A stretch of DNA of 45,299 nucleotides from Rotaria sp. (lineage: Eukaryota), in assembly GCA_905330235.1 (NCBI GenBank), contig CAJNUA010000162.1:81202-126500 (forward strand), in the 5' to 3' direction. The translations under genes were made by a program, and so were the position numbers. The notes below the pieces were generated by a model. The model ran no database searches. It worked only from the letters and a program-made list of their open reading frames with translations, and was not told the DNA's origin. Below, piece by piece: positions 774-23,063 of the stretch; the first letter of the stretch is position 1, and each line of letters starts with the position of its first letter.

Positions 774-827
774 GTAATGTCTTATGCTTAAATTAATCAC
801 ATATCATTGTGTATCTATTATATATAG

Positions 828-1438
828 GAGGTGGTGGTATACCAATATCGACTTTAGAATCAGAAGCTATTCGTGTTGTTTCTAAATATAATGGTGCAAT
901 ATCAATATATGCTACGGACAAGCGTGGTGTAGGTGAAAGTGATGGATTAGAATGTCCAATATCAATATTTTTAAATTTTTCATCTTGTTTATCATATATA
1001 AAAGAACATCAATATCGTTTAAAGCATAATACATTTACAAATATGGCACGGGATTTACAATATGTATTAAAAGTTGTTTCGAATCGTCAAACCTTAAAAT
1101 CAAATCAACGTGTCATATTAATGGGTTCAAGTCAAGGAACTTATCTTTTACAAAGATATCTTCATTTAATAGAAAATGAAAGACAAATTGATGGTGTTAT
1201 ACTTGATTCTGTTGTTCCAACAGATTTTATTGATCTTATCAAGTATGATAAATATGTTGACTACATGTTCTTAGATTTACTTTTACGATGTGCACACGAC
1301 AAACAAGGTTGTGCAAATAAATTTGAGGATCAAAATCCATTACGTGCTGCCTATACTTATAAAATTAATGAAGAAATTCAAGGAAATTTATCTTGTCTTT
1401 CATCATTAAATACAACTAGTATTGAAATCGGTATACAA
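828..1438 (+). CDS. Exon 3 of the alpha/beta-hydrolase. It contains DKRGVGESDGLECP and the nucleophile elbow GSSQG (GxSxG). Donor GTAAGA at 1439.
   Basis: ORF 809..1471. GGGGIP...DKRGVGES resembles the oxyanion and DPRGVG.S region of S33/TAP-family hydrolases. ILMGSSQGTYL matches the GxSxG serine-hydrolase motif. Confidence 0.6.
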
Positions 1439-1788
1439 GTAAGAATTAAAAAAAACTTAATATCAAGATAACAATGATAGTTTGATGTTTTTTTTCTTTC
1501 GTAAGATGTCATATTTATATTTTCCACTTGTTATGCAATTAATTCCACCATTAATTTATCGAATAAATCGATGTAATTCACAAGATAAAATTGTTTTACA
1601 ACATTTTCTCAAGCAAACATCATCATCACCATTTCCATATAATCGACCTGGATACTCTATGTTGGTAAGATTCTTTTTTTTGTGAAACACGATATAAAAG
1701 GAGTGTTGAAGTATAATTCCGCAGGAATTGCTTTAATAGCTCTTTTAGTCATCATTAAAAAAGCAAACTTGTTTTCTTTATATTCAAG

Positions 1789-5401: not shown

Positions 5402-7222
5402 TATCAAGTATTACTTAAAGGTTTTCGGCACTACGAGGATGTGGATATTTGTGCTAGCACAGAAAATACTCAAACTCTTACAAAAGTTAACTTTACTTCA
5501 AATATCAGTAAATGACCGTAATTAATATTTAATGAAATGGTTGGAAATTCAACGTTTAACCGAAATCAGACCATCATCTACTCAATTAAATAAGGCAATG
5601 TTACATGCCTCATTCATAAATATATTTATGTTATTATCTATACATCTAAATTATCATAGTTCCAATGAAGTTAATCAATTGGTTTTATTTTTATTTTCAA
5701 GACACGAATGAAAAATTTAGCGCTGCTATTAGAAATGGTATAGCTGATGTTAAATATCAATGATCTTAAAGTTTTTAGTCAAATCTGCTTTATATGATTG
5801 TCGAATAGACAAAAGAAAAGATTTCGAAAAAGTGGTTGCAGGTATAAAAAGTACAATGATATCTCTTTCAAAAGACGAAATAATACTTAAGACAGTTCTT
5901 ATTCTTATGGTCTCATCTGTGTTTACGGGTGAATAATTTTGTGATTATCTCTATATGTTGAATGATGACCATTTCCTTTTTGAATAACAAGAATATTCTC
6001 AGAACAAATCGAACCTTTAAGAAAATTCTTGTTAGGAGAATTTGCACTTTTTGGTAAAAATTGTTCCAGAACGTCAAACATTTATAGCATTTTTTTTCTA
6101 TTTTGCATCTGCTAGTTGTGATTTAACTAAAAAAGAAAAAAAGAATTTCTTTTTAACTATGCATGATAGTAAGAAACATTGATCTAAAATAGAACGTGAG
6201 ATGAATTTCTATTACCTATGTAACTTTTTCCAGGCCCCAATATAGTTGAAATCATGTTATTTCGTACGTTCATAATGCACCTGATCACGCGAATTTTTGT
6301 TGCATCTACGAACACAGAGTATTTCATTGTCAGTATAAAACAAACGTTTATCTTGTGTTCGGTACGGTAGAATATAAATGGAAACGTAAATGACTCGATA
6401 AGGTGCTGTTTGTAAATCTAGAAAGGTTATAAGTATAAAAAAAGAACGAAACATCATTATACAAATAGTATTTCTCAGTTTCTATCTGTGATAAATCTTT
6501 CAACTTCTGTATAGTTCTCGAAGTTTTCATTAGAAAGCGAAAGTTACTCGACTACAGAGGTAGTCTAGCAATTATCCATAAACAATAACGATTGACTTCA
6601 ATAGTTACCGTTCCTTATTTAGTTTAATTCCAACGCATCACTCATTTTTATTTTCGAACAAACTAAAACTTGAATTCAAATACAGAATATTTCAATAGGT
6701 GTGATTTTGATGTTGTTCTATCGATTTTTGAATATTTTTCGAATCTCAAAATTCTACAGCGAATTTAATGGTCTTATTAAACATTAATTTGGATTTATCA
6801 TGAATTACTCTTCTGTTCGATCTTCAAACTTTATTATGACCGAGATTGAGATAGAATGATCAAGTAAAGGTGACAATGCAACTGAAGTGGAGACCTTCAC
6901 CATACATTCGCACTCTCCGTTAGACAGCAACATATCTACCTGGTCTCTTCAGTATGTTAGATGACATATATCAATGTAACATAATTTTTTTTTATAATAA
7001 TGCAGAAAAACTATTGATTATAAACAAACAGAGTCAAGAAAACCATAGACGATGATATTTATATTACTTATCAAACTTAACGAAAGTTTTTATTACAAAG
7101 AAAATTTAAATTAATTGAGCTTCTAATATATTTACTTTGCATTTATGTAATTTTAGCAAAATAATAGTAGTCTTTTAATATTACATTATAAATACAACGA
7201 ATTGAAAAGTCTTCCTAGATAT

Positions 7223-7793: not shown

Positions 7794-7851
7794 CTGAAAA
7801 AGATAATCTCGATACAAGAAACAAGAAAATTTAGGCTTGACACGTCGATAC

Positions 7852-9207
7852 CTGACTAACAATTGTTATTAAGAAAAGTAAAGTATGTAGATTATAATCA
7901 AAATCCTTCGTATTATGCTCTAACTCTTCAACTATTACTGTTATGACTGTCTTCCAAGGCACAATTGGTATCGATAATGATTTACGTAACATGTCACTAA
8001 AAATCGAAGCCCATTGACGCAAATCCTCAATGTCGATAGATAATGAGTACTGTCGACGTAAGCTAAGTTCATACAACCAAAAATCAGCTCCTCGATGATG
8101 TTGTGCATTGTCAGCTAGAAGGGCACCACGAAATCGAAGAGAACGACAGTATTTTGCATTAGTTGGTCCCAGCAAACGTTCACGTACGAGTAACGCTTCA
8201 GTGTACATATGATCATCGTTTAATCGAAGCTTTTCCAGCTCATCGATTGTTTGACATTCTTGTCGATTATTGAACACTTCGACAGTTGATAATCTTCGAA
8301 CTTTAGGAAGATTATGTTCTGATCGAAGTTCAAGTGCTTCATAGAAGCATTCAAACGATTTTTCAACATTAGAAATTCCATGTTCACGACAGACAAAAGC
8401 ACTTCCAAGTAATTCGTGTGCTTCGATTTGTTCAAGCAATGAACATTGTAGAGAAATAGCATCGACAAGATCAATTCGTCTCTTTTCAGCTGCTAATAAT
8501 AATGGAGACATGTGATTATGATTTGATCGAAAATTTCGAGCATTATGATTTAGTAACAATTGAACTAGTTCAAGTGAACCACGATCTACAGCAAAGTAGA
8601 GTGGTGAACGTCCATCATCTATTGATTCATTCACATCACAACTTAGTTCATCAACGAGATAAGTTGTCATTTCTAAATCTTCATTATAAACACTTAAAAT
8701 AAGATTCGTTTCATTATGTATTTTGTTAATATGTATATCAGCACCGTGTTCGTTCAAGTAACGAGCAATATTAATATTACCATTGGAACAAGCACAACGA
8801 AATGCTGTTGAATTTGTTTTAGTTGTATGATTAACTCGAGCTCCATGTTCAACAAGTAATTTCACGATTTTAAAATTATCAATGGCAGCTGCTGCCCATA
8901 AAACGGTCACATTCTCATACATCAATAAAGTTTGATCCTTTTCTTCGAGTTGTATATCATTTAGCACTTCAAGATCGAGTCCAGAATAATTAAGCAACAT
9001 CTGTACCATGTCTTCGAACTTATTTAAACAAGCAATCATGAGTAAAGTACTTTTTTGTTTATCCGGTTCGTTATATATTTGATTTAAGTAAATCTCGGCA
9101 TTGTTCATTGTTGACAAATGACTTTCGAGTGCTTTGACATCTCCTTGATGAACAAACGATAATAGCAAGCTGCTCACTTTAACACTGGAGTCATCATTGA
9201 ATTTCAT
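7852..9207 (-). CDS. fem-1: Fem-1 homolog (ankyrin-repeat substrate adaptor), exon 1. ATG at 9207 (MKFNDDSSVKV...) and donor GTATCG at 7851.
   Basis: ORF 7831..9228 (-) aligns along its whole length with vertebrate FEM1B/FEM1C (HGARVNHTTKTNSTAFRCAC vs [31 protein letters not shown] vs IEALELLGASF; RNLYTFLYL-like segment). Confidence 0.85.
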
Positions 9208-12200
9208 TGTAGTTGTAAATGCATACAAATAAAAAATAATATTTTACCTTGTATTTATAATCACACGTGCATGTTTTATTATGTAGATTTTTCTTTCTTT
9301 CTTCTGCGTTCTTACGCTATGTAAGATGAATCACAGTGCACACAGAAAATAAAAAACACTTTACTCAAACAAAACAATAAAAGAAAACTGTTTTGTTCAG
9401 TTTTTCTTTATCCTAAAATATTCGAACGTGAAATCTATCTTGAAGATGAAAACTGGCATGGTTTGTTTACAAAAAAATCTATGCATTAATACAAATTAAT
9501 TTATCAGTTTGGATCAAACATAGTTCATTTGATTCTTTAATAAGATTAGTGATACGTCTTCATGAGTTTTTACTCAATATCTGATTATAACGATCAAGCG
9601 CATAAAAGGATTGATGAGAAATGAAAGGAAAGACTTACTGATAAAGAAACATAAAAAAAAATTAAATTGTTCTTGAAAATCGTAGGATATATACATGCAT
9701 TCTATAATCAACACCATAAAGCGAGAAACAGTTAAGTTTTGAAATTGTCTAAAATTATTAATAATATTTTACTATTCTCGAATCATACTTGGTATCTGCT
9801 TATCAAAGAACTCAGTTTTGTATTTTCAAAACCGCGAGGTAATCATGAGTTTCTAATTTGAGTTATTAAATAAATGAAGACTTAATAACCTTATATCAAC
9901 TTGAAAATGATTGAAAAAATTTTGAGTCGGCATTTCACTGCAGAAAACACCAAAGATAAGTTTTAACTCAACTATAATTCTAATTAGAAATAGAAACGCT
10001 CGTAGAGATTTAGTGAACAGATTAAGATTGACATGGAAGACAGAACGACATATGGTACATCATCAGAATGTAATAAAGTTTCTACTTGAATTATAAATAT
10101 GAATTTAGTAAAACTTTATCTATGATTAGAGATATAAGCTGTTGATGACTTTGTTTTTTAATTTTGGTTTATATTCGAACTCGAATTAGATCACTATTCA
10201 AAACATTATACTATGCAACTAATTTGCTCCGTGATAAATCTCTATTAGCGCTGTTGTCACTAGTAAATTTAATGTTTCCATTAAATATAAGTTTGCACAG
10301 TGAAGATGTTTACTTTCCAACGATACGGTAATGAATTGTTGTAAATTTGAAGAAAGTATAGTAAATAGGAGAGAGGAAAATAATTCGACTGCTTTCATAT
10401 TAGAAACATGTGAAGTGTGGGTAAAGATGGAGATTCTCTTTGCGCCTTCATCCATGCCTACACGCATAAGTATTGAGAGCTTTTTTTGGTTAATCATCGT
10501 TCAAAAGGTGAACCATCACAAATTATAGGTATCCACAGTTATAACGTTTAGACAATGACAGATGATAAAATCAAGAACGAAATTTTAGAACTTGTTTATC
10601 GAATTTCTAGTTTTTTCTTCTAGACAAACTTGAAACAGATGAAGCTTATTTGTTTTATCATCTTTATGATCAACTTATTGGAAAACATGGCTGGCATTTT
10701 TATAGAATAGCTGATTAAGATGAAGAACGCCTGAGATTTGTTTCACAACAGATACTTGGTCAACCGGATTTTGAACTTTAGATGTGTTTAAATGATTTTT
10801 TTTATGCAAATGACGCAGTTAGAACATTGTTTGTTTTTTAATACACTTGAAACCCACTGAAATCATTCATTTTTTTTTTCAAAAATGCTTCTTCCTTTTT
10901 TTGACTAAATAAGAACAAATGTCTTAAATAAACAAGTTCAGATAAATTTTAATTAGTTGTACGAAATCTATCTGAATTACAGTAGATTACTTTTCTACAT
11001 ACAATTCTTTAGATTCATATTAGAGAAAAAGGCCGATAAAAGTCAACGAATATTGAATATATCATAGACAGATACTCATATTGAACGAAAATCTAGTAAT
11101 CAAGAAGAATTACTTGGAGAAATATTACGAATGAGCGAATAAACGTGAGTTAAAATAAAGTTTTAACATTGTTTTTCATTTTTCTGTACAATTTATATAA
11201 GTTAAGAGAGAAAAATAAATGTTTGTTAAGTAAATCGCAATTCAAGGTTGATCGAATGAAATGTTTGTTTAGCTTTAGTCAAAGAAATGCCTTTTTCAGT
11301 TTCATCGTTAAGGAATGATGCCGTTAAGAATGTAGCCAGGAATGTTGAGCTTTTTTCATTCTGTTCTTAGAAATTTTTAAATGATTTTCATCGTTTCATC
11401 TTAGGAAGTTAGAAAAGATATTTAAGCCTGAATCAAACATATCTTGTTACGACGAAAACTTATTCGCATTTGTTTCTTTGAAATCTATTCGTCTGATACT
11501 GTCGAACACATTTATCATTTGAATAATACTGATTGTGGAAAAGAGTAAATATCATTGTCCTCTGATATCGACAAAAATCGGACGAATACGAATCGAAATC
11601 ATTTAATCATCAACTGTACATCGTACAAAGAATTTTATTGCATTTAAGAGGCTTTATTTAAACGAATTTCAATTCTTCGAACTGCCTAAACAAACTTTTC
11701 ATTCTTTTACTGCTTCACGTAGTCACTTACTTTGTCATCTCTGCGTGTTGATGTATCTGCTGTTTGCAAAAAAATATTGGTGGACACACACTGCAAGATG
11801 AAATGTCACTATTGCGACTGATCTTTCTAATCGGCGAACAATTAAGTGGTAGAAAGAGAGAAAGGTAGCGCGAAAAATAACAAAACAACTCATCGGCAAG
11901 CACATCACTTCTTACGGCATACATTATTTAAGAGAATAGTGAAAGTAACATTTAAAAAGCTGAAAGTGAGCAGTGACTAAATTTCGTTCTTCTTGGAAAA
12001 ATTGTCTTTCAAACTTAAACTTCGCTTTGACGAAATCAAAAGTAATATTTCTGAAGATTATAGACTGGCAGTCGTTTTTTTTTTACTTAACAGTACTTGG
12101 TGTAGATTCTAAAATATTACTTAATTTGACTTCCTACGGAATATTGAAGAATTTCTGGAGACTTCACTCGAGATCTGCACTCGTTCAATTTCAGAGAATG

Positions 12201-13607: not shown

Positions 13608-14473
13608 ACCGATTGAACGAGGAACTGTTTGGCGTGGTGTAATCGAACATCTCCACGAGCTCTATCCTCGTGGATAATTGCAAGCATGGTGGGCCTTCAG
13701 ATCTTGCACAAGATCTCTCCAAGTACTGGAGTCACCTCAGTATCTTGGTATATCATGTACTCGAACGCTCTTCTTGATTAAGGCATCGAAAGGAAAAGAC
13801 ATTAGTCGATACTCGTGCTTCCGGAATGAGGATGAAATTTTACTTCTTCCTGGTACATACTTCGAAGTAAATAGTCAAATAATTGCGGGAGGATGGTTGC
13901 ATATTATTCATCTTCACGAATATAACCCTCCATATGAACTTCTAGTTTCACCTTTACCTGACTTGCATCCACAGAAGCATACTCCAAGTACGAAAGCCGT
14001 ACAAAAATTTAAGAAAGCAGTGTTAGACAGCAAGAAGGAAAAAACAAGCGTCCAGAGTAAACAGGTCGTGAGCCTGAATGAAGACGATTATGATGGTTCT
14101 AAATTTTGTATAGATGCACTGATTACTCATAATCAGTATCGCCTGCAACACAATACAGCAACACTAATAGCGAATGAACATTTATCTAAAGCAGCCACTG
14201 ACTGGGCACGCGAATTGATCAACATGAATGTACTTAAATATTCTCCCGACCAATGGCGACGTTATCGAAGCTCAGTGTTAGGCGAAAGCCTAGCCTATTT
14301 CATGGGACCTGTACTAAAAGGCGATCGTCAAAATGATATATGGACCGTGAAGTGCAACAACATGATCTTAGTATCTACCTTCAAGAGAAGTCCCTTCATT
14401 TTTCACAACTGGTATGGAAAAGCACCGAACAAGTCGGCTTTGATCGTTATCAAACTCTCGACAAAAAACAATG
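13608..14473 (+). CDS. ART-CAP gene exon 3, with ART catalytic core, linker and CAP domain. R motif TVWRGV; STS-like motif AFRSCTRS; catalytic ExE in TLFLIKASKGKDISRYSCFRNEDEILLLPGTYFEV; then a Lys/Ser-rich linker and a CAP/SCP domain (HNQYRLQHN...GESLAYFMGP...SQLVWKSTEQVGF). It is disrupted by an in-frame TAA at 13675-13677 and an apparent 1-nt frameshift near 14344-14372. Donor GTACAT at 14474.
   Basis: Hand alignment to rat/human ART2: YRG-17aa-FTSSS...GTLFIIKTCLGVYIKEFSFRPDQEEVLIPGYEVYQ vs WRG-19aa-FRSCTRS...RTLFLIKASKGKDISRYSCFRNEDEILLLPGTYFEV. CAP part vs GAPR-1/GLIPR2: HNEYRQKHGV/HNQYRLQHNT, GENLAW/GESLAY, HYTQVVWAKS/HFSQLVWKST. Confidence 0.6.
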
Positions 14474-14565
14474 GTACATTGATAATATTGCAACATAGAA
14501 TAAGCATAGTTTCATTGTGAATCATTTTTGATCAACTTGAAATCGAAAACTTTTCTAATCTTTAG

Positions 14566-17461: not shown

Positions 17462-19536
17462 GATGCTTTGATAGTATCAAACTCGAATAGCCTTATGTAA
17501 AAAGATTACTTATTTTGCACAATCGATGAGATTTATATAGTATCATAGTCTTTGGTAGAGCATGACTTCAACTAAAAAACAAAACTAATAAAACGTAGGA
17601 GACACCATATCGTCTTTTTTTTATGAATAATATTGATCTATCTTTGGCAAAATCGTAGATTAGCCTTGACGTATAAAATATTAATCTAATGATAGAGTAT
17701 GTCGTAATACAAAACATGTCTATATTTACGCATTTAGTTTTTTGAATCTTTTCTTTCATTGACGTCATTTATGATAGATAGGTTTTGCGCATCATATTCA
17801 TCGATGCTTGACTAAGCTCCTTGGCTTTCTAAAGATACTACTTATCAAAAGTAGATAAGTGAAACAATAACAGATATATACGCTAATATAAAAATAGTAC
17901 TATGATCATCTTTTCTCAAATATTCACTAGGACTAAATTGTTTGTTTTATCGAAAGACTTACGACAAGTTAAGTTGGAAGTAGATTCAAGAGGTTTATTG
18001 AATTATGCTTTGCAATTTGAACGTTGATTATAATACAGAATAATCAACAACAACAAAAATAATGATGAAAAAAGAGGAAAATATAAAAAAATAAGGATTC
18101 AACACTTCATATACTTTATTTGTTTAGAAATATTTAAAATATGACTTAAAAAAGATTGACATTTTTTTCTTCTTATTTTGTGCAATTATACTGATGAAAA
18201 CGAATAGATTAGTCATCAAAATCAGAAATCGTTGTATGTAAATAAATTTTACATTAATATTCTTACCCATGATAAAAAAATCGAGTTCGTTTTGAAGCTA
18301 AAAGCAAACTGTATATTTATTCTATTTTTAGTTGAACTATAACCTTGACAATCAACTATATGCATGACAATGTTCTGAATTCAAACATTCTTTCATAAAG
18401 TTTTTATAGAATAATAAAACATCTGGTTCCTTTAGATTTGCAGTATATTATCATCAAAATTATGTAATAATTGAATTTATTTCACGATGGTGTGAGTTTG
18501 CATGCGACTGAGTGTACGAATAAGTGAAGAAAAGATTTCCTCTTCAGTTACACACAAATTCACCTAACTAGCTCATCTCACTTTAAAAATCATGAAGACA
18601 CTGATTATTTGAGAAATATACTACGTAGTTGGACGTGAATAGATGTGAAGATCTTGTTTTCATCTACGCTCATTCGTTTTATTAGAATCAACAAAGCAAT
18701 TGTCGTAGATGCTGTTATTGTCTGTTGTAGCAGTTAGTAGATTGAATACGAACGATAACGAATCGTGATTAACTTATAATTTGATAAATACGAAGAATGA
18801 TTTGTGCGAGATATATTCCTATCATATCTGAATATCTTTTCACAAACTAAAACTTCAAGTCAAACTTTTCTTAGACAAGTTAGATTTAGCTGATAAACCA
18901 AATGTGTCACTACATAATGACGTCATGTGCTTGTCAGTTAGACTTCCACCATTGACAATACATATCTAATAGACACTGTTTCATTGTGAAAAAAGACAAG
19001 GAATGATTTGCCTCTTAGAAGTTTTTAGATTTCCTTGAAAAAAAAACAATGATTTGTTTTTGATTGTATTCAATTGGAACATGAAAAAAGTATTTACTAA
19101 ATTTTTGGATTGCTGCGTATTAGTAAGAGCTTGTTATTTGAATCAGTTTCAAAAATATAACACTGATCAATACAATCACAACAAGCTTATCATTTGTTCT
19201 ACTTGCACTCGATTTAGTATGAAATGTGATCTAAGAAATCTGTGAAGCAATAATATAACATATATTGAGTCAAGCTATCAAGTATCATTGAGTCTCAACG
19301 AAAAATTACAATTTCTTCCCTAATAATAACGATATAAAATACTGTCAATATATATGATCACCTATTCATTCATGGATATCGTGAATGAAGAGTCTTTTTT
19401 TCGTGGAGGTGTGCTGATTCTCAGATGCATGCTTTCAGTTCGCTCAAATTGTTACAACGGCTAAATAGACTAGGTCTTCTCGAAAACCTTTCGTTACTCA
19501 TGCGTGTTTTTTTCCAATGATTTCTATTTTTTTTTA

Positions 19537-20027
19537 TTAAATAAAACGTCGTAAACCAAAGTATAATACGAATGCAAAGATAGACGAAAAGAAAATTATT
19601 TTGTTGCTTATAGCTCTTTTCAACACGAAAAGTAAAGAAAGAAAGACAAGTAAAAATAAAGAAGCAATAACGGATCCAGAGAGATTTATGTATGTAAAAT
19701 GTTCATCTGGTCCTAACATGACTAATTCTGGTCCAAAAATGATTCTTGAATTTTTCTCTTTGTAATCAAACACTTGCACGGCTTGATTTTGTGGTACTCG
19801 ATAGGTAACTAATCTGGATTTGTCACGTTTTGTCGTTTGAAATGACGACGTTACTGTTGTTTTGGTACGTCTATCAACTAAAGAATCTCGTTGAAGAAAC
19901 TCTTCTATGCTTAATGGTAATTCTTTTTCCCAGAGTTCTTCATCTTGTGTTAACATGTATGTATTACCAACAATTGCACGAACACGGCCAGTTTTTAAGT
20001 CTCGAACATAGATACCTTCATTTTCAT
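19537..20027 (-). CDS. MVP: MVP terminal region as seen here ([38 protein letters not shown]...[35 protein letters not shown]). The ORF then continues into a hydrophobic tail [45 protein letters not shown] and ends at TAA 19537-19539. A 39-51 nt micro-intron separates it from exon 5. The true 3' boundary is uncertain: there is either a splice donor near 19676 or read-through to this stop.
   Basis: ORF 19537..20154. Homology to MVP residues about 380-520 ([38 protein letters not shown]...[34 protein letters not shown]) ends at ...INLSG. AATAAA lies immediately after the stop on the minus strand (about 19527-19535). Confidence 0.55.
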
Positions 20028-20078
20028 CTAGAACAGTATCTAATAAATAAACAAGATATAAAAGATCAAGCAACTTAC

Positions 20079-20165
20079 CCAAAGGTATCGCTTTTCTTTT
20101 TTGTAAGACTTCGACTTGGACTGGTGGTATGTATTCTTTTGGTCCTCTTATCACCCATTTGTCGC
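20079..20165 (-). CDS. MVP: MVP exon 5 ([29 protein letters not shown]). Acceptor ttttaag, donor GGTAAGT.
   Basis: Matches MVP [30 protein letters not shown]. It is separated from exon 4 by a roughly 1.6 kb intron that contains a repetitive element. Confidence 0.75.
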
Positions 20166-20244
20166 CTTAAAAGAAATTTGAATTGTTCAAAAATTCATAT
20201 AGAATATACAGTTTTAATTCTTGTGTAGGGAGAGCCTAGTAGAG

Positions 20245-21705
20245 TCCTACGGAGTCAACTTTTTCGATTCCGAAACCCGACCGCAACTCCAAAAATTTTA
20301 ATTTTTTCATTTCCCCAGGTTGAAAAAGTACGATCGTAAACGACCGTATACAAAAAAATACGACGGATTACGATGATCGTATACGATGTCTGTATACGTC
20401 ACTGGTATACGATGCTATACAATAATCGTAAATGACCGTTCAATCCGACCATCGTAAACGGCGTTCGTATACGATCGTATTTTGTCGTGTTCAACGCTAA
20501 GTAATTTTCTTTGTACAAAAGAATTTTTTTAATATTTATATCTGTTACAATCGTACAATGTGCAGTAAATATGTTTTGTTATAAGGGACAATTTTTTTTC
20601 TATACGATCCCTCTCGATGGCACAACGAACCTTAAATGTTATTTTAAACTAAACAAGTTTTTTTTCTTTTTTATTTAAATTTATATCAATAGAAAAAAGA
20701 AAAGCAAGTATTAATATATTTAAATAAATTTTACTTTTTAACAACGATACATCGAACAGTAAGTTAGAATTTATGTAAATAATTTTTTTTTTTTATTTTT
20801 AGATTTATTATAAGAATAAATGAAACAGTAAGTATTTACTGAGATAAATTGGGGTGCCCAGCCAGACTGGGCATCCCAAATATTAGTCTTTATATTATTT
20901 GGAGAATGAGAAGGGGGAAATAGGACAAATTTATGTGGAATAATGTGAGAAACGACGTTGTATACCACCGCGTACGATCGTTTACGGTGGTTGTATATAC
21001 GTCGTATTTCGTCGTATACGACACGACGATATACGGTTGTATACGATTGCATACGACGTCGTATACGATCGTTTACGACTGTCGTAATGCTCGTCCTGGG
21101 CCGATTCTAACTCCGAAAAATTACGAATTTTTTTTTTTGTCTGAAATGAGCAACATATAATCTATTCTATTGTTCAAATTTTAACATAGACATAGGCAAT
21201 TGGATAAAAAGTTGAATGAATGAAGAAAAGTCAAAGAATTATTAAAAAATTGATCGTAAATTTCTTTTTCAGTTTTTGTGCGTAAAAAAAAATAAAAAAG
21301 ATTGCAAAGTTTTTGACAAGAAAACAACTTGAAAAACTGATACATGAAAAACATGAAGCTGTAAAACTCGACACGTACTATACCCAAACAATCAAGAATT
21401 GATGATGAAGACAGTTATAGTATTCAGATGAAATTAAAATATTTTTTGATTAATCTCATTATGTTTTCATATAGCTGATTTTTAGAATAGTATAACTAAA
21501 AGTTGATCGTCCTTTTTTTACCTTAAAGCTCATTCTTAATCTATGTAATAAATTATGTTGTTTCTTTTATTATTGTGAAAAGTAAAGCTATTGGTTTTGT
21601 GAAAAGTAAACATTTTTGTCGGAGGCAGTTACAATTTTGACTCTGACTCCGATCACGACTCCGATGGGGTCGGAGTCATAATTGGGTTTCGGAGTTCCCC
21701 GCAGG
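20245..21705. mobile_element. A roughly 1.5 kb TIR-bounded non-autonomous DNA element inside the MVP intron. The terminal inverted repeats are imperfect and about 45 bp (TCCTACGGAGTCAACTTTTTCGATTCCGAAACCCGACC... / ...GGGTTTCGGAGTTCCCCGCAGG). Internally it carries inverted sub-repeats (20300-20500 vs 20930-21135) rich in the CpG-containing motif CGTATACGA / CGTTTACGA.
   Basis: The reverse complement of 21650-21705 aligns with 20245-20290 (shared cct[a/g]cgg...tccgaaaccc...gacc). The flanks ctagtagag / tctctagag may be an imperfect 8-9 bp target duplication. The element is markedly GC/CpG-rich relative to the surrounding AT-rich sequence. Confidence 0.5.
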
Positions 21706-21771
21706 TCTCTAGAGCCTAGCCATTGGTAATTTGTCTACACTAAAAACATTAATAAAATTCTTTTCTCTTAC

Positions 21772-21957
21772 CCGGCACACGAGTCACATTGTCTATTTCA
21801 TCATCAAACGATTCAATACATTTTACTACGATACCTTCATCTTCACTCAATACGTACACATCTTGAATTTCTTTCTCTAATTGTTCATTAGGTTGTAAGA
21901 AAAAGGATTTGTCACCAACGACTAATTTCTTTTTGCCCCATTGGTTTTTACCGTTAG
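21772..21957 (-). CDS. MVP: MVP exon 4 ([63 protein letters not shown]). Donor GTAAGA.
   Basis: ORF 21749..21991. Matches [48 protein letters not shown]. Confidence 0.8.
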
Positions 21958-22018
21958 CTTGAAAAGAAAATAGAAATAATAATAAGTCCAATCATAGTTT
22001 GACATCTAGCATTCTTAC

Positions 22019-22441
22019 ATGTGACTGGATTTAAGATGACACAATATTGTCTTGAATTCAATGTTTTTATATCAACAATTGCCACAAGTTGTTCATAGAC
22101 ATTCAAAATATGTGTTTCAGTTTGCTCTTTTGTCACGAGCCATTCGTCCCCATTATTTCTTGTTTGACCAAAATCATCTGTGAATGTGTTTAGTGCACGT
22201 AAATGTAAAGCTTTTTTATCTGTTACAACATAGCCATTTTCAATGCTCACAACTGTTTCATAAGCCAATGGTAAATAAGCACCCAATTGTTTTACTAACC
22301 AGTTTTCACCCACCACACGACGTTGATCCATACGATCGACAAGTTCTTTTTTAGCACTTAATCTTAGTGCTTGATTTGGACCGATCACGGTAGCAACAAT
22401 GTGTTCTTCAACCGATACTTCTTTGCGTGGTGTATAAGTGC
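22019..22441 (-). CDS. MVP: MVP exon 3 ([37 protein letters not shown]...[44 protein letters not shown]). Donor GTAAGA.
   Basis: ORF 21954..22388 plus the upstream in-frame segment from the acceptor tttttcag at 22442-22449. Matches MVP repeat domains 3-5 (QNQALRLRARKE, TGEEWLVT, HNYCVILDPV). Confidence 0.8.
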
Positions 22442-22535
22442 CTGAAAAATTAAAATATTTGTATAGTTAACGTACACTTATCATGACTCGAGTGAATTCA
22501 CTAAATGAATTATAGCTGAATACGTAGTTACTTAC

Positions 22536-22656
22536 CTGGTCCTTCGAAAAGCCATTCGTCTCCAGCTTTTCGCTGTTCTCCATTATCATCAAAATCCAAA
22601 ACGGCTTTTAATCGTAATGCTGAACTAGCCGCAACATATTTTAAAGGTGTGGCAGC
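22536..22656 (-). CDS. MVP: MVP exon 2 ([41 protein letters not shown]). Acceptor ...ttccag, donor GTAAGT.
   Basis: Hand translation of the rc. Matches [32 protein letters not shown]. The phase (0 in, 1 out) is consistent with its neighbours. Confidence 0.8.
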
Positions 22657-22715
22657 CTGGAATAATATTAATAGATACTATGAAAAATTACTTTAAATAA
22701 TGATATTCAAAGTAC

Positions 22716-23063
22716 CTGTTTTAAAACTTCACCAGGATACAATGGAAATGGTTCTTCATAATCGTTTTCCTGTCTAACATCTAGGCTACCATGCAACAAT
22801 TTTGCTTGACCATTTTTGTCGAATTGTGCTTGATTATTTTCATTCTTCACAACTGGATTTTCAATAACACAGTAGTGTCTTGGTGGTAGAGTAATCATTT
22901 TATCAGGCCCAAAAACTATTGTCTCATTGCCTTGTTTCAAGAACTTGTGTGGACCGATTTCCAATCGTGTTATACTTGTATTCTGGTCTAATACGTGAAT
23001 ATAATAATAAGGTGGAATACGATAGACAGGACCTGTCTGAGCCGGTAAACTCTTAGAAGACAT
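22716..23063 (-). CDS. MVP: Major vault protein (MVP) exon 1 (MSSKSLPAQTGPVYRIPPYYYIHVLDQNTSITRLEIGPHKF...PFPLYPGEVLKQ). ATG at 23063, donor GTACTT.
   Basis: ORF 22707..23156. Near-identity of IPPYYYIHVLDQN...PPRHYCVIENPV...PFPLYPGEVL with the vertebrate MVP N-terminus (IPPYHYIHVLDQN...PPRHYCTVANPV...PFPLYPGEVL). Confidence 0.85.

Follow-up and report, generated by a model that had tools for sequence, protein, structure and literature searches.

A bdelloid rotifer MVP paralog that ends inside repeat R9 and carries a conserved hydrophobic tail

A truncated MVP gene in Rotaria sp. Silwood2

Vaults rank among the largest and most abundant particles of eukaryotes, and what they do is still unclear. 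Here we describe a gene for a truncated major vault protein (MVP) in a 45,299-nucleotide stretch of the genome of the bdelloid rotifer Rotaria sp. Silwood2 (assembly GCA_905330235.1, contig CAJNUA010000162.1, positions 81,202 to 126,500), which we call the window and whose coordinates are used below. The window is AT-rich eukaryotic DNA (~31% GC) with short GT-AG introns. The gene lies on its minus strand at 23063-19537 and consists of six exons with GT-AG boundaries throughout, giving an open reading frame (ORF) of 551 aa. After the sequence ...INLSG, which ends at G506, a splice donor is absent and the frame continues into a tail of 45 residues (19674-19540). The features of the gene are as follows.

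22716-23063, minus strand: exon 1, with the ATG at 23063 and a GT donor at 22715; residues 1-116, MVP repeat R1 to the beginning of R2
22536-22656, minus strand: exon 2, AG/GT boundaries, MVP-aligned
22019-22441, minus strand: exon 3, MVP-aligned
21772-21957, minus strand: exon 4, MVP-aligned
20166-21771, minus strand: intron 4, 1606 nt, enlarged by a lineage-specific transposon-like insert of ~1.5 kb
20079-20165, minus strand: exon 5, 87 nt, also in proteins P0122 and P0002
19675-20027, minus strand: MVP-homologous part of exon 6, R8 and most of R9, to G506 (19677-19675)
19621-19674, minus strand: tail hydrophobic segment 1, residues 507-524 (18 residues), Kyte-Doolittle mean 2.86
19600-19620, minus strand: basic loop, residues 525-531 (KRAISNK), net charge +3
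19552-19599, minus strand: tail hydrophobic segment 2, residues 532-547 (16 residues), Kyte-Doolittle mean 2.36
19537-19551, minus strand: C-terminal RRFI and the stop codon TAA (19539-19537)
19533-19538, minus strand: AATAAA polyadenylation-type hexamer, overlapping the stop codon

An earlier sequence-only reading of the window had outlined most of this structure. Its start at 23063 stands, but the 87-nt exon 5 behind the 1.6-kb intron had to be added to its exons. Its statement that the frame runs on without an obvious GT donor into a hydrophobic tail agrees with the sequence after G506 and with the two hydrophobic segments found there. The TAA and the AATAAA that it reported are both present, the hexamer (19538-19533) overlapping the stop codon.

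In a Pfam search of the 551-aa protein, four families scored above the cut-off, namely Vault (four stretches), Vault_2, Vault_4 and Vault_3. The Vault_3 match covers only profile positions 2-46 of 62, indicating that R9 is incomplete, and no match to MVP_shoulder (PF11978) was found in the protein. Against solved structures, residues 12-506 align to residues 6-502 of human/rat MVP with an E value of 1e-181, a match far beyond chance. Since the match boundary falls at MVP residue ~502, the homology stops inside R9; the earlier extent of about residues 1-520 is too long at its end. When five full-length MVPs were compared with the whole 45-kb window in six frames by tblastn, nothing was found past their residue ~508-533, and all remaining matches in the window had E>0.3, so that ~360-390 C-terminal MVP residues are absent from the window. 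The shoulder, the cap-helix and the cap-ring, as defined in PMC7916137, were found neither in the ORF nor in any of the six frames. The 2.2 kb between the tail and the next gene yielded no relics of C-terminal exons and no repeat element; this downstream stretch is unique among the sequences compared and only partly alignable to Rotaria sp. Silwood1 and R. sordida. The lack of PF11978 and of any C-terminal tblastn match in the window bears out the sequence-only claim that the locus holds the N-terminal repeats only. Judged by its domain content, the protein is a member of the MVP sequence family that lacks the features of a vault-shell subunit (shoulder, cap-helix and cap-ring).

The best database matches of the 551-aa protein are bdelloid rotifer proteins. 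P0122 of Rotaria sp. Silwood2, also 551 aa and annotated on two other contigs, is identical to our gene model, and P0001 on a third contig represents the same gene with exon 5 skipped, a skipping that was probably caused by the insert in intron 4. This insert has imperfect inverted ends and numerous CGTATACGA-type subterminal repeats; a second copy was not found within the window, and the orthologous introns measure 50-125 nt in six other species. The contig of GCA_905332175.1 that carries P0001 is colinear with window positions 33063-9537; over 23,554 bases the two differ by 3 mismatches and 3 gaps (99.87% identity), and the colinear stretch spans the MVP/tail junction together with the 2.2 kb downstream.

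Conservation, selection and origin of the truncated gene

We read the orthologous loci through the junction directly from the genomes, disregarding published gene models. The same two-segment tail, with 45 codons and zero indels, was found in Rotaria sp. Silwood1, R. sordida, R. socialis, Adineta ricciae and A. steineri, and the annotated proteins of R. magnacalcarata also have it. Bdelloids of two genera, at least eight species in all, keep the truncated architecture including the tail, the A. vaga tail being out of frame. Every species has a first hydrophobic segment of 18 residues, a loop of 7 and a second hydrophobic segment of 16. The loop carries a net charge of +3 in all eight species and its terminal K is invariant, as is an FF pair near the start of segment 2; the RR near the C-terminus is invariant in all orthologs and is followed by F or Y, and no acidic residue occurs in the tail of any species. 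Silwood2, Silwood1, R. socialis and R. magnacalcarata stop at the identical codon. The TAATAAA arrangement is common to Silwood2, Silwood1 and R. socialis, and A. ricciae has an AATAAA no more than 10 nt from its stop. At the A. steineri locus (L004, 5432-5920), the genome encodes the complete two-segment tail, part of which is spliced out or altered in the annotated proteins P0009, P0137, P0138 and P0140.

Pairwise dN/dS between orthologs is 0.11-0.37 for the MVP part of the last exon and 0.33-0.55 for the tail. Pooled over three path-disjoint species pairs, pN/pS of the tail is 0.60 (one-sided Fisher p=0.0009). When neutral evolution was simulated at the nucleotide divergence observed between Silwood2 and A. 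ricciae, the frame stayed open in 8% of replicates, and an open frame combined with the observed amino-acid identity occurred in only 0.14% of them. Judging from these substitution patterns, the gene evolves under purifying selection.

A neighbour-joining tree was built from 503 shared columns of 38 sequences with 200 bootstraps. The truncated proteins form a single clade (100% bootstrap), within which those of Rotaria and those of Adineta each make up a subclade (100% in both cases). This single clade, with subclades matching the genera, indicates that the truncation happened once, before the Rotaria/Adineta split. The clade is sister to the two full-length MVPs of Didymodactylos carnosus (100%) and stands apart from the main full-length bdelloid clade. 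The sister position is less secure and could be a long-branch effect, because by raw identity D. carnosus is slightly nearer to the full-length clade and the truncated clade is fast-evolving. Over the first 506 residues, Rotaria-Adineta identity is ~71% for the truncated proteins versus 86-89% for the full-length ones.

The genome also holds full-length MVPs, as the sequence-only reading had proposed to check. One example is P0016 (884 aa), which shares ~70% identity with the truncated protein over the first 506 residues. The full-length bdelloid genes, which form the separate clade mentioned above and evolve ~2.5x more slowly between Rotaria and Adineta, continue without interruption across the break as LSGSVPKKANQ... 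into the shoulder. The D. carnosus protein P0008 (864 aa) is the nearest full-length relative in the tree and is identical through ...INLSGSV at the break, but it differs from the truncated proteins in being full length, with shoulder and cap. Many distinct full-length paralogs occur per bdelloid species (e.g. P0016-P0021, P0030-P0034 and P0041 in Rotaria sp. Silwood2), although some of these entries may be alleles or stem from different assemblies. In most eukaryotes there is just one MVP paralogue (PMC11219742); the bdelloid MVPs look like a family expansion, a description of which we did not find.

We also compared the residues named for the waist interface, at which two half-vaults meet, namely E4, E5, A6, I7, I36, R37, D39 and R42, with Asp39 as the key acidic residue (PMC2752026). 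All bdelloid MVPs, truncated or full-length, differ from those of other animals at E4, E5 and R42, the substitutions shared by the two groups being E4/E5 to S/G and R42 to T. The equivalent of Asp39 is Gly in the truncated copy of Silwood2 (codon G45, window 22929-22931). The 5 other truncated proteins have Asp at this position, as do 17 of the 19 other MVPs examined; the exceptions are Glu in P0008 of D. carnosus and Asn, as aligned, in P0018, a full-length Silwood2 paralog. By sequence comparison, the waist residues do not discriminate between the hypotheses discussed below, and the change of D39 to G alone is specific to the Silwood2 copy.

Expression data are available for A. vaga, in which five MVP genes are induced (Moris et al. 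2024, PMC10809525). Table S3 of that study covers the core response that radiation and desiccation share and includes FUN_013870, annotated as MVP with PF01505, PF17794, PF17795 and PF17796 and without PF11978. The base mean of this gene is 1501, and 2.5 h after desiccated animals were X-irradiated its log2 fold change is 3.9 (false discovery rate 4e-75). In these published data, the induction amounts to ~15-fold. The adjoining gene FUN_013871 is a PF00685 sulfotransferase (PMC10809525), and the gene adjoining the truncated A. vaga ortholog P0007 (locus L005, 2881-3750) is likewise a PF00685 sulfotransferase. Since domain content and neighbour identity match, we equate FUN_013870 with P0007, an assignment based on these two agreements and not on an explicit table of identifiers. 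FUN_013871 has its best BLAST matches in cyanobacteria and other bacteria and also belongs to the core radiation/desiccation response (PMC10809525); it may be a horizontally acquired, co-regulated neighbour. The ~15-fold induction of the A. vaga ortholog suggests that the truncated MVP is probably part of the bdelloid stress response. The A. vaga tail is very similar to that of A. ricciae but lies in the +1 frame owing to one extra base exactly at the junction, after ...TTATCTCAAT (L005 ~5800-5812; CP075492.1 ~14.67 Mb). As a result of the frameshift, the annotated P0007 ends in unrelated sequence. The extra base results from an error in the assembly or else from a very recent mutation.

The gene downstream of the truncated MVP in the window (17461-17000, minus strand) encodes a 153-aa Cys-rich protein with a signal-like N-terminus and follows the truncated MVP gene in other Rotaria as well. 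A Pfam scan of this protein gave no match, leaving its earlier label as WAP-like unverified. P0004, P0005, P0010 and P0037 wrongly fuse this gene to the MVP gene. Other long ORFs of the window encode an ankyrin-repeat protein (7831-9228, minus strand), an alpha/beta-hydrolase fragment (809-1471, plus strand) and a product with a weak, sub-threshold match to NAD:arginine ADP-ribosyltransferase (13678-14520, plus strand), all with no apparent connection to the MVP gene. An Rfam scan of the whole window gave zero matches.

Tail properties and alternative explanations

The most hydrophobic 17-mer of the protein lies in tail segment 1, with a Kyte-Doolittle value of 3.08, whereas residues 1-490 peak at only 1.14, so that hydropathy of a transmembrane-like level is exceeded in the tail alone. 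By this hydropathy scan, residues 1-490 contain neither an N-terminal signal peptide nor any other hydrophobic segment before the tail, and the first 30 residues average -0.45, which is not signal-like. The two C-terminal hydrophobic segments span residues 507-524 and 532-547, the second ending 4 residues from the C-terminus. In an AlphaFold2 (AF2) model, residues 512-529 and 536-550 are helical at low confidence (predicted local distance difference test score, pLDDT, of ~51-54 in the tail). The model was too poor for a fold search and was used only for these two tail helices. The hydrophobicity of the tail alone is not significant, because read-through into AT-rich DNA often yields peptides rich in F, L and I (P0044 and P0121 are examples); the tail is raised above chance because it is conserved across genera.

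Based on these observations, we consider it fairly likely that the gene is an intact, bdelloid-specific MVP paralog whose product is a membrane-anchored rod of vault repeats, unable to form the vault cap. Its structure, its lack of the C-terminal domains, the conservation of and selection on its tail, the monophyly of its clade and the expression of the A. vaga ortholog come directly from the genomes, the tree and the published tables, while membrane insertion, topology, target organelle and function are predicted. The gene itself is real and conserved, and it is probably functional. In the scenario that we propose, a copy of an ancestral full-length MVP would have lost everything beyond the middle of R9, from its last strand through shoulder and cap-helix to the cap-ring, and would have gained, before Rotaria and Adineta diverged, the 45-residue tail with its two hydrophobic segments, +3 loop and RR(F/Y)x end. 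The rod of ~500 residues formed by R1-R9 would remain cytosolic, as expected for a protein with no signal peptide, and the C-terminal hydrophobic hairpin would insert post-translationally into an endomembrane in the fashion of a tail anchor, keeping the waist-forming R1 end away from the membrane. The shoulder, cap-helix and cap-ring complete the vault shell, and the passage of PMC7916137 that cites van Zon 2002 gives the coiled-coil domain a role in assembly. Without shoulder and cap-helix, the truncated protein should be unable to close the vault cap by itself, and its role may thus be that of a membrane-bound vault-repeat scaffold or docking site and not that of a shell subunit.

Several observations weigh against this interpretation. 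The dN/dS of the tail is moderate and its constraint weaker than that of the repeats. Among close Rotaria species, tail DNA is 79% identical versus 75% for the 3' flank, so little above it that the constraint must again be called moderate. The repeats of the truncated clade evolve ~2.5x faster than those of the full-length proteins, which could reflect relaxed constraint. The frameshift in the A. vaga assembly deletes the tail from the predicted protein and, if real, would make the tail dispensable in that species. Both tail segments are short (18 and 16 residues), and a hairpin with both ends cytosolic would need its +3 loop to be translocated, contrary to the positive-inside rule. The AF2 model, built on an alignment of 25 sequences, is poor, with a mean pLDDT of 54.6. 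At the 3' end the published gene models contradict one another, several of them splicing off the tail or fusing the gene to the next one, and the protein clusters looked up contain NCBI genome annotations only and no transcriptome-derived members.

Some of these points are better accommodated if the paralog is real and truncated but its hydrophobic tail is not a bilayer anchor, a possibility that we hold to be rather unlikely and rank, in its self-association and R9-completion forms, second to the hairpin anchor. The tail might mediate self-association in place of the cap-helix, target the protein to lipid droplets or act as a degron; or SLFLLV might complete the R9 sheet in place of the lost LCLLLG strand, leaving a single classical tail-anchor. 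The short segments and the poor fit of the +3 loop to a hairpin would suit such a role, and segment 2 alone, with its basic flanks and its end 4 residues from the C-terminus, has the look of a classical tail-anchor. It is also in keeping with this idea that the most hydrophobic 17-residue window of full-length MVP directly follows the break (P0016 535-551 and P0008 517-533; TLCLLLGPDFFTDVIVI / LCLLLGPDFFTDVIVI, Kyte-Doolittle 1.78) and that the best local alignment of the tail lands on this segment. That alignment is non-significant, however, as are those of the tail with the MVP C-terminal region generally (p=0.28 or worse), and the hydropathy of segment 1 is transmembrane-like (2.9-3.1 in Rotaria). 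There is a very small chance that the tail never reaches the mature product, with a donor near ...FTY splicing to downstream exons and the conserved ORF being incidental. Annotated proteins of Silwood1, R. sordida and A. ricciae (P0003, P0004, P0005, P0011 and P0145-P0150) do exit exon 6 near FTY, where Silwood1 has TAT followed directly by GTAAAT. Yet the sequence joined on differs in every model and genus: Rotaria models take up a Cys-rich secreted gene and those of A. ricciae an unrelated 411-aa gene, and in A. steineri and A. vaga the downstream annotated ATG27 gene is encoded on the other strand. At this site the window reads ACA TAC ATA AAT and lacks a GT, MVP homology runs six codons further (NLSGSV) past it, and the tail is conserved as protein across genera with its stop coupled to AATAAA.

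The sequence-only reading had left three possibilities open, of which a truncated, possibly membrane-tethered paralog agrees best with the conserved tail, the purifying selection, the single clade and the A. vaga expression, the tethering being predicted. Its second possibility, a pseudogenised duplicate, which would be partial and in neutral decay, is contradicted and thus rejected, with a very small probability. The missing C-terminal half, the transposon-like insert in intron 4, the faster evolution of the repeats relative to the full-length paralogs, the A. vaga frameshift and the Gly at the Asp39 position of the Silwood2 copy alone would all fit decay; against it stand an intact ORF with canonical splice sites throughout, an architecture retained in eight species of two genera, dN/dS below 1 in repeats (0.11-0.37) and tail (about 0.4-0.5) alike, and an A. 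vaga ortholog that is strongly expressed and regulated. The third, a contig that is chimeric at ~19676 with the C-terminal exons elsewhere, is likewise rejected and has a negligible probability. Only the abrupt end of homology speaks for such a join, whereas the independent assembly GCA_905332175.1 is colinear over 23.5 kb across the junction, the identical 551-aa protein occurs on two further contigs, and junction and tail recur at orthologous loci in seven other species.

We also considered two sources for the tail. An origin by intron read-through was rejected, as the break point is not interrupted by an intron in the full-length genes of P0016, from the same species, and P0008, from D. carnosus. 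In other animals the short MVP models P0044, P0042, P0056 and P0115 stop, or diverge into hydrophobic read-through, directly after ...QFTLI. This suggests that those taxa have an exon boundary about six codons before the bdelloid break point, but the NLSGSV between the two sites is still MVP-homologous. An origin from the MVP C-terminal region, in frame or frameshifted, found no support: four tails were aligned with two full-length C-terminal regions and with both alternative frames of the corresponding exon, and the alignments were no better than those of shuffled tails (p 0.16-0.85).

Relation to known proteins and significance

The truncated protein shares the N-terminal repeat array and the four Pfam families with canonical MVP (human/rat, ~861-893 aa; PDB 4V60, 4HL8 and 6BP7). 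It differs in breaking off before the last strand of R9, so that the shoulder (PF11978), a cap-helix of 155 residues and the cap-ring are missing as well, and in ending instead in the 45-residue hydrophobic tail. It should thus be unable to form the cap by which a half-vault is held together. Recombinant R1-R7 fragments of MVP (PDB 3GF5; PMC2752026) likewise consist of repeats without the assembly domains, but these are laboratory constructs without a hydrophobic tail, whereas the bdelloid protein is natural, conserved and ends inside R9. The protein resembles tail-anchored proteins in its large N-terminal domain, the lack of a signal sequence, the hydrophobic last 45 residues and the basic-flanked last segment. 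Unlike them, it has two hydrophobic segments and a highly basic loop, and insertion is here predicted from the sequence only.

In full-text searches of the literature for MVP with rotifers or bdelloids, we found only the A. vaga expression study, which lists 'MVP' without comment, and an unrelated salmon-louse paper. Searches for MVP paralogs with truncation returned no natural truncated or membrane-tailed MVP. The term 'transmembrane', sought within single papers only, had just two mentions, both of them in PMC3595041, where it concerns colicin-type annotations. We thus found no prior description of a truncated, membrane-tailed MVP, although the proteins are already public as unnamed products. 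Published expression tables list the gene merely as 'MVP', and the database models of the family are often wrong, with exon 5 skipped, the downstream gene fused or the tail spliced away.

The truncated paralog is a natural MVP derivative, conserved since ancient times, that keeps the ligand-binding and waist-forming repeats, drops the assembly domains and gains a probable membrane anchor. It is thus a natural experiment that separates the capability of the repeat array from that of the closed shell. A more speculative extension, which we think improbable, is that the proteins form membrane-anchored arrays or open barrels whose free R1 ends dock canonical half-vaults or pair in trans, so that bdelloids would have a stress-induced means of tethering vault particles or membranes while they recover from desiccation and radiation. 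If true, this would be a membrane-bound vault architecture, of which we found no description in any organism. In A. vaga the ortholog is among the genes that radiation and desiccation both induce, which ties the truncated MVP to the extreme stress tolerance of bdelloids and makes it a concrete, testable gene.

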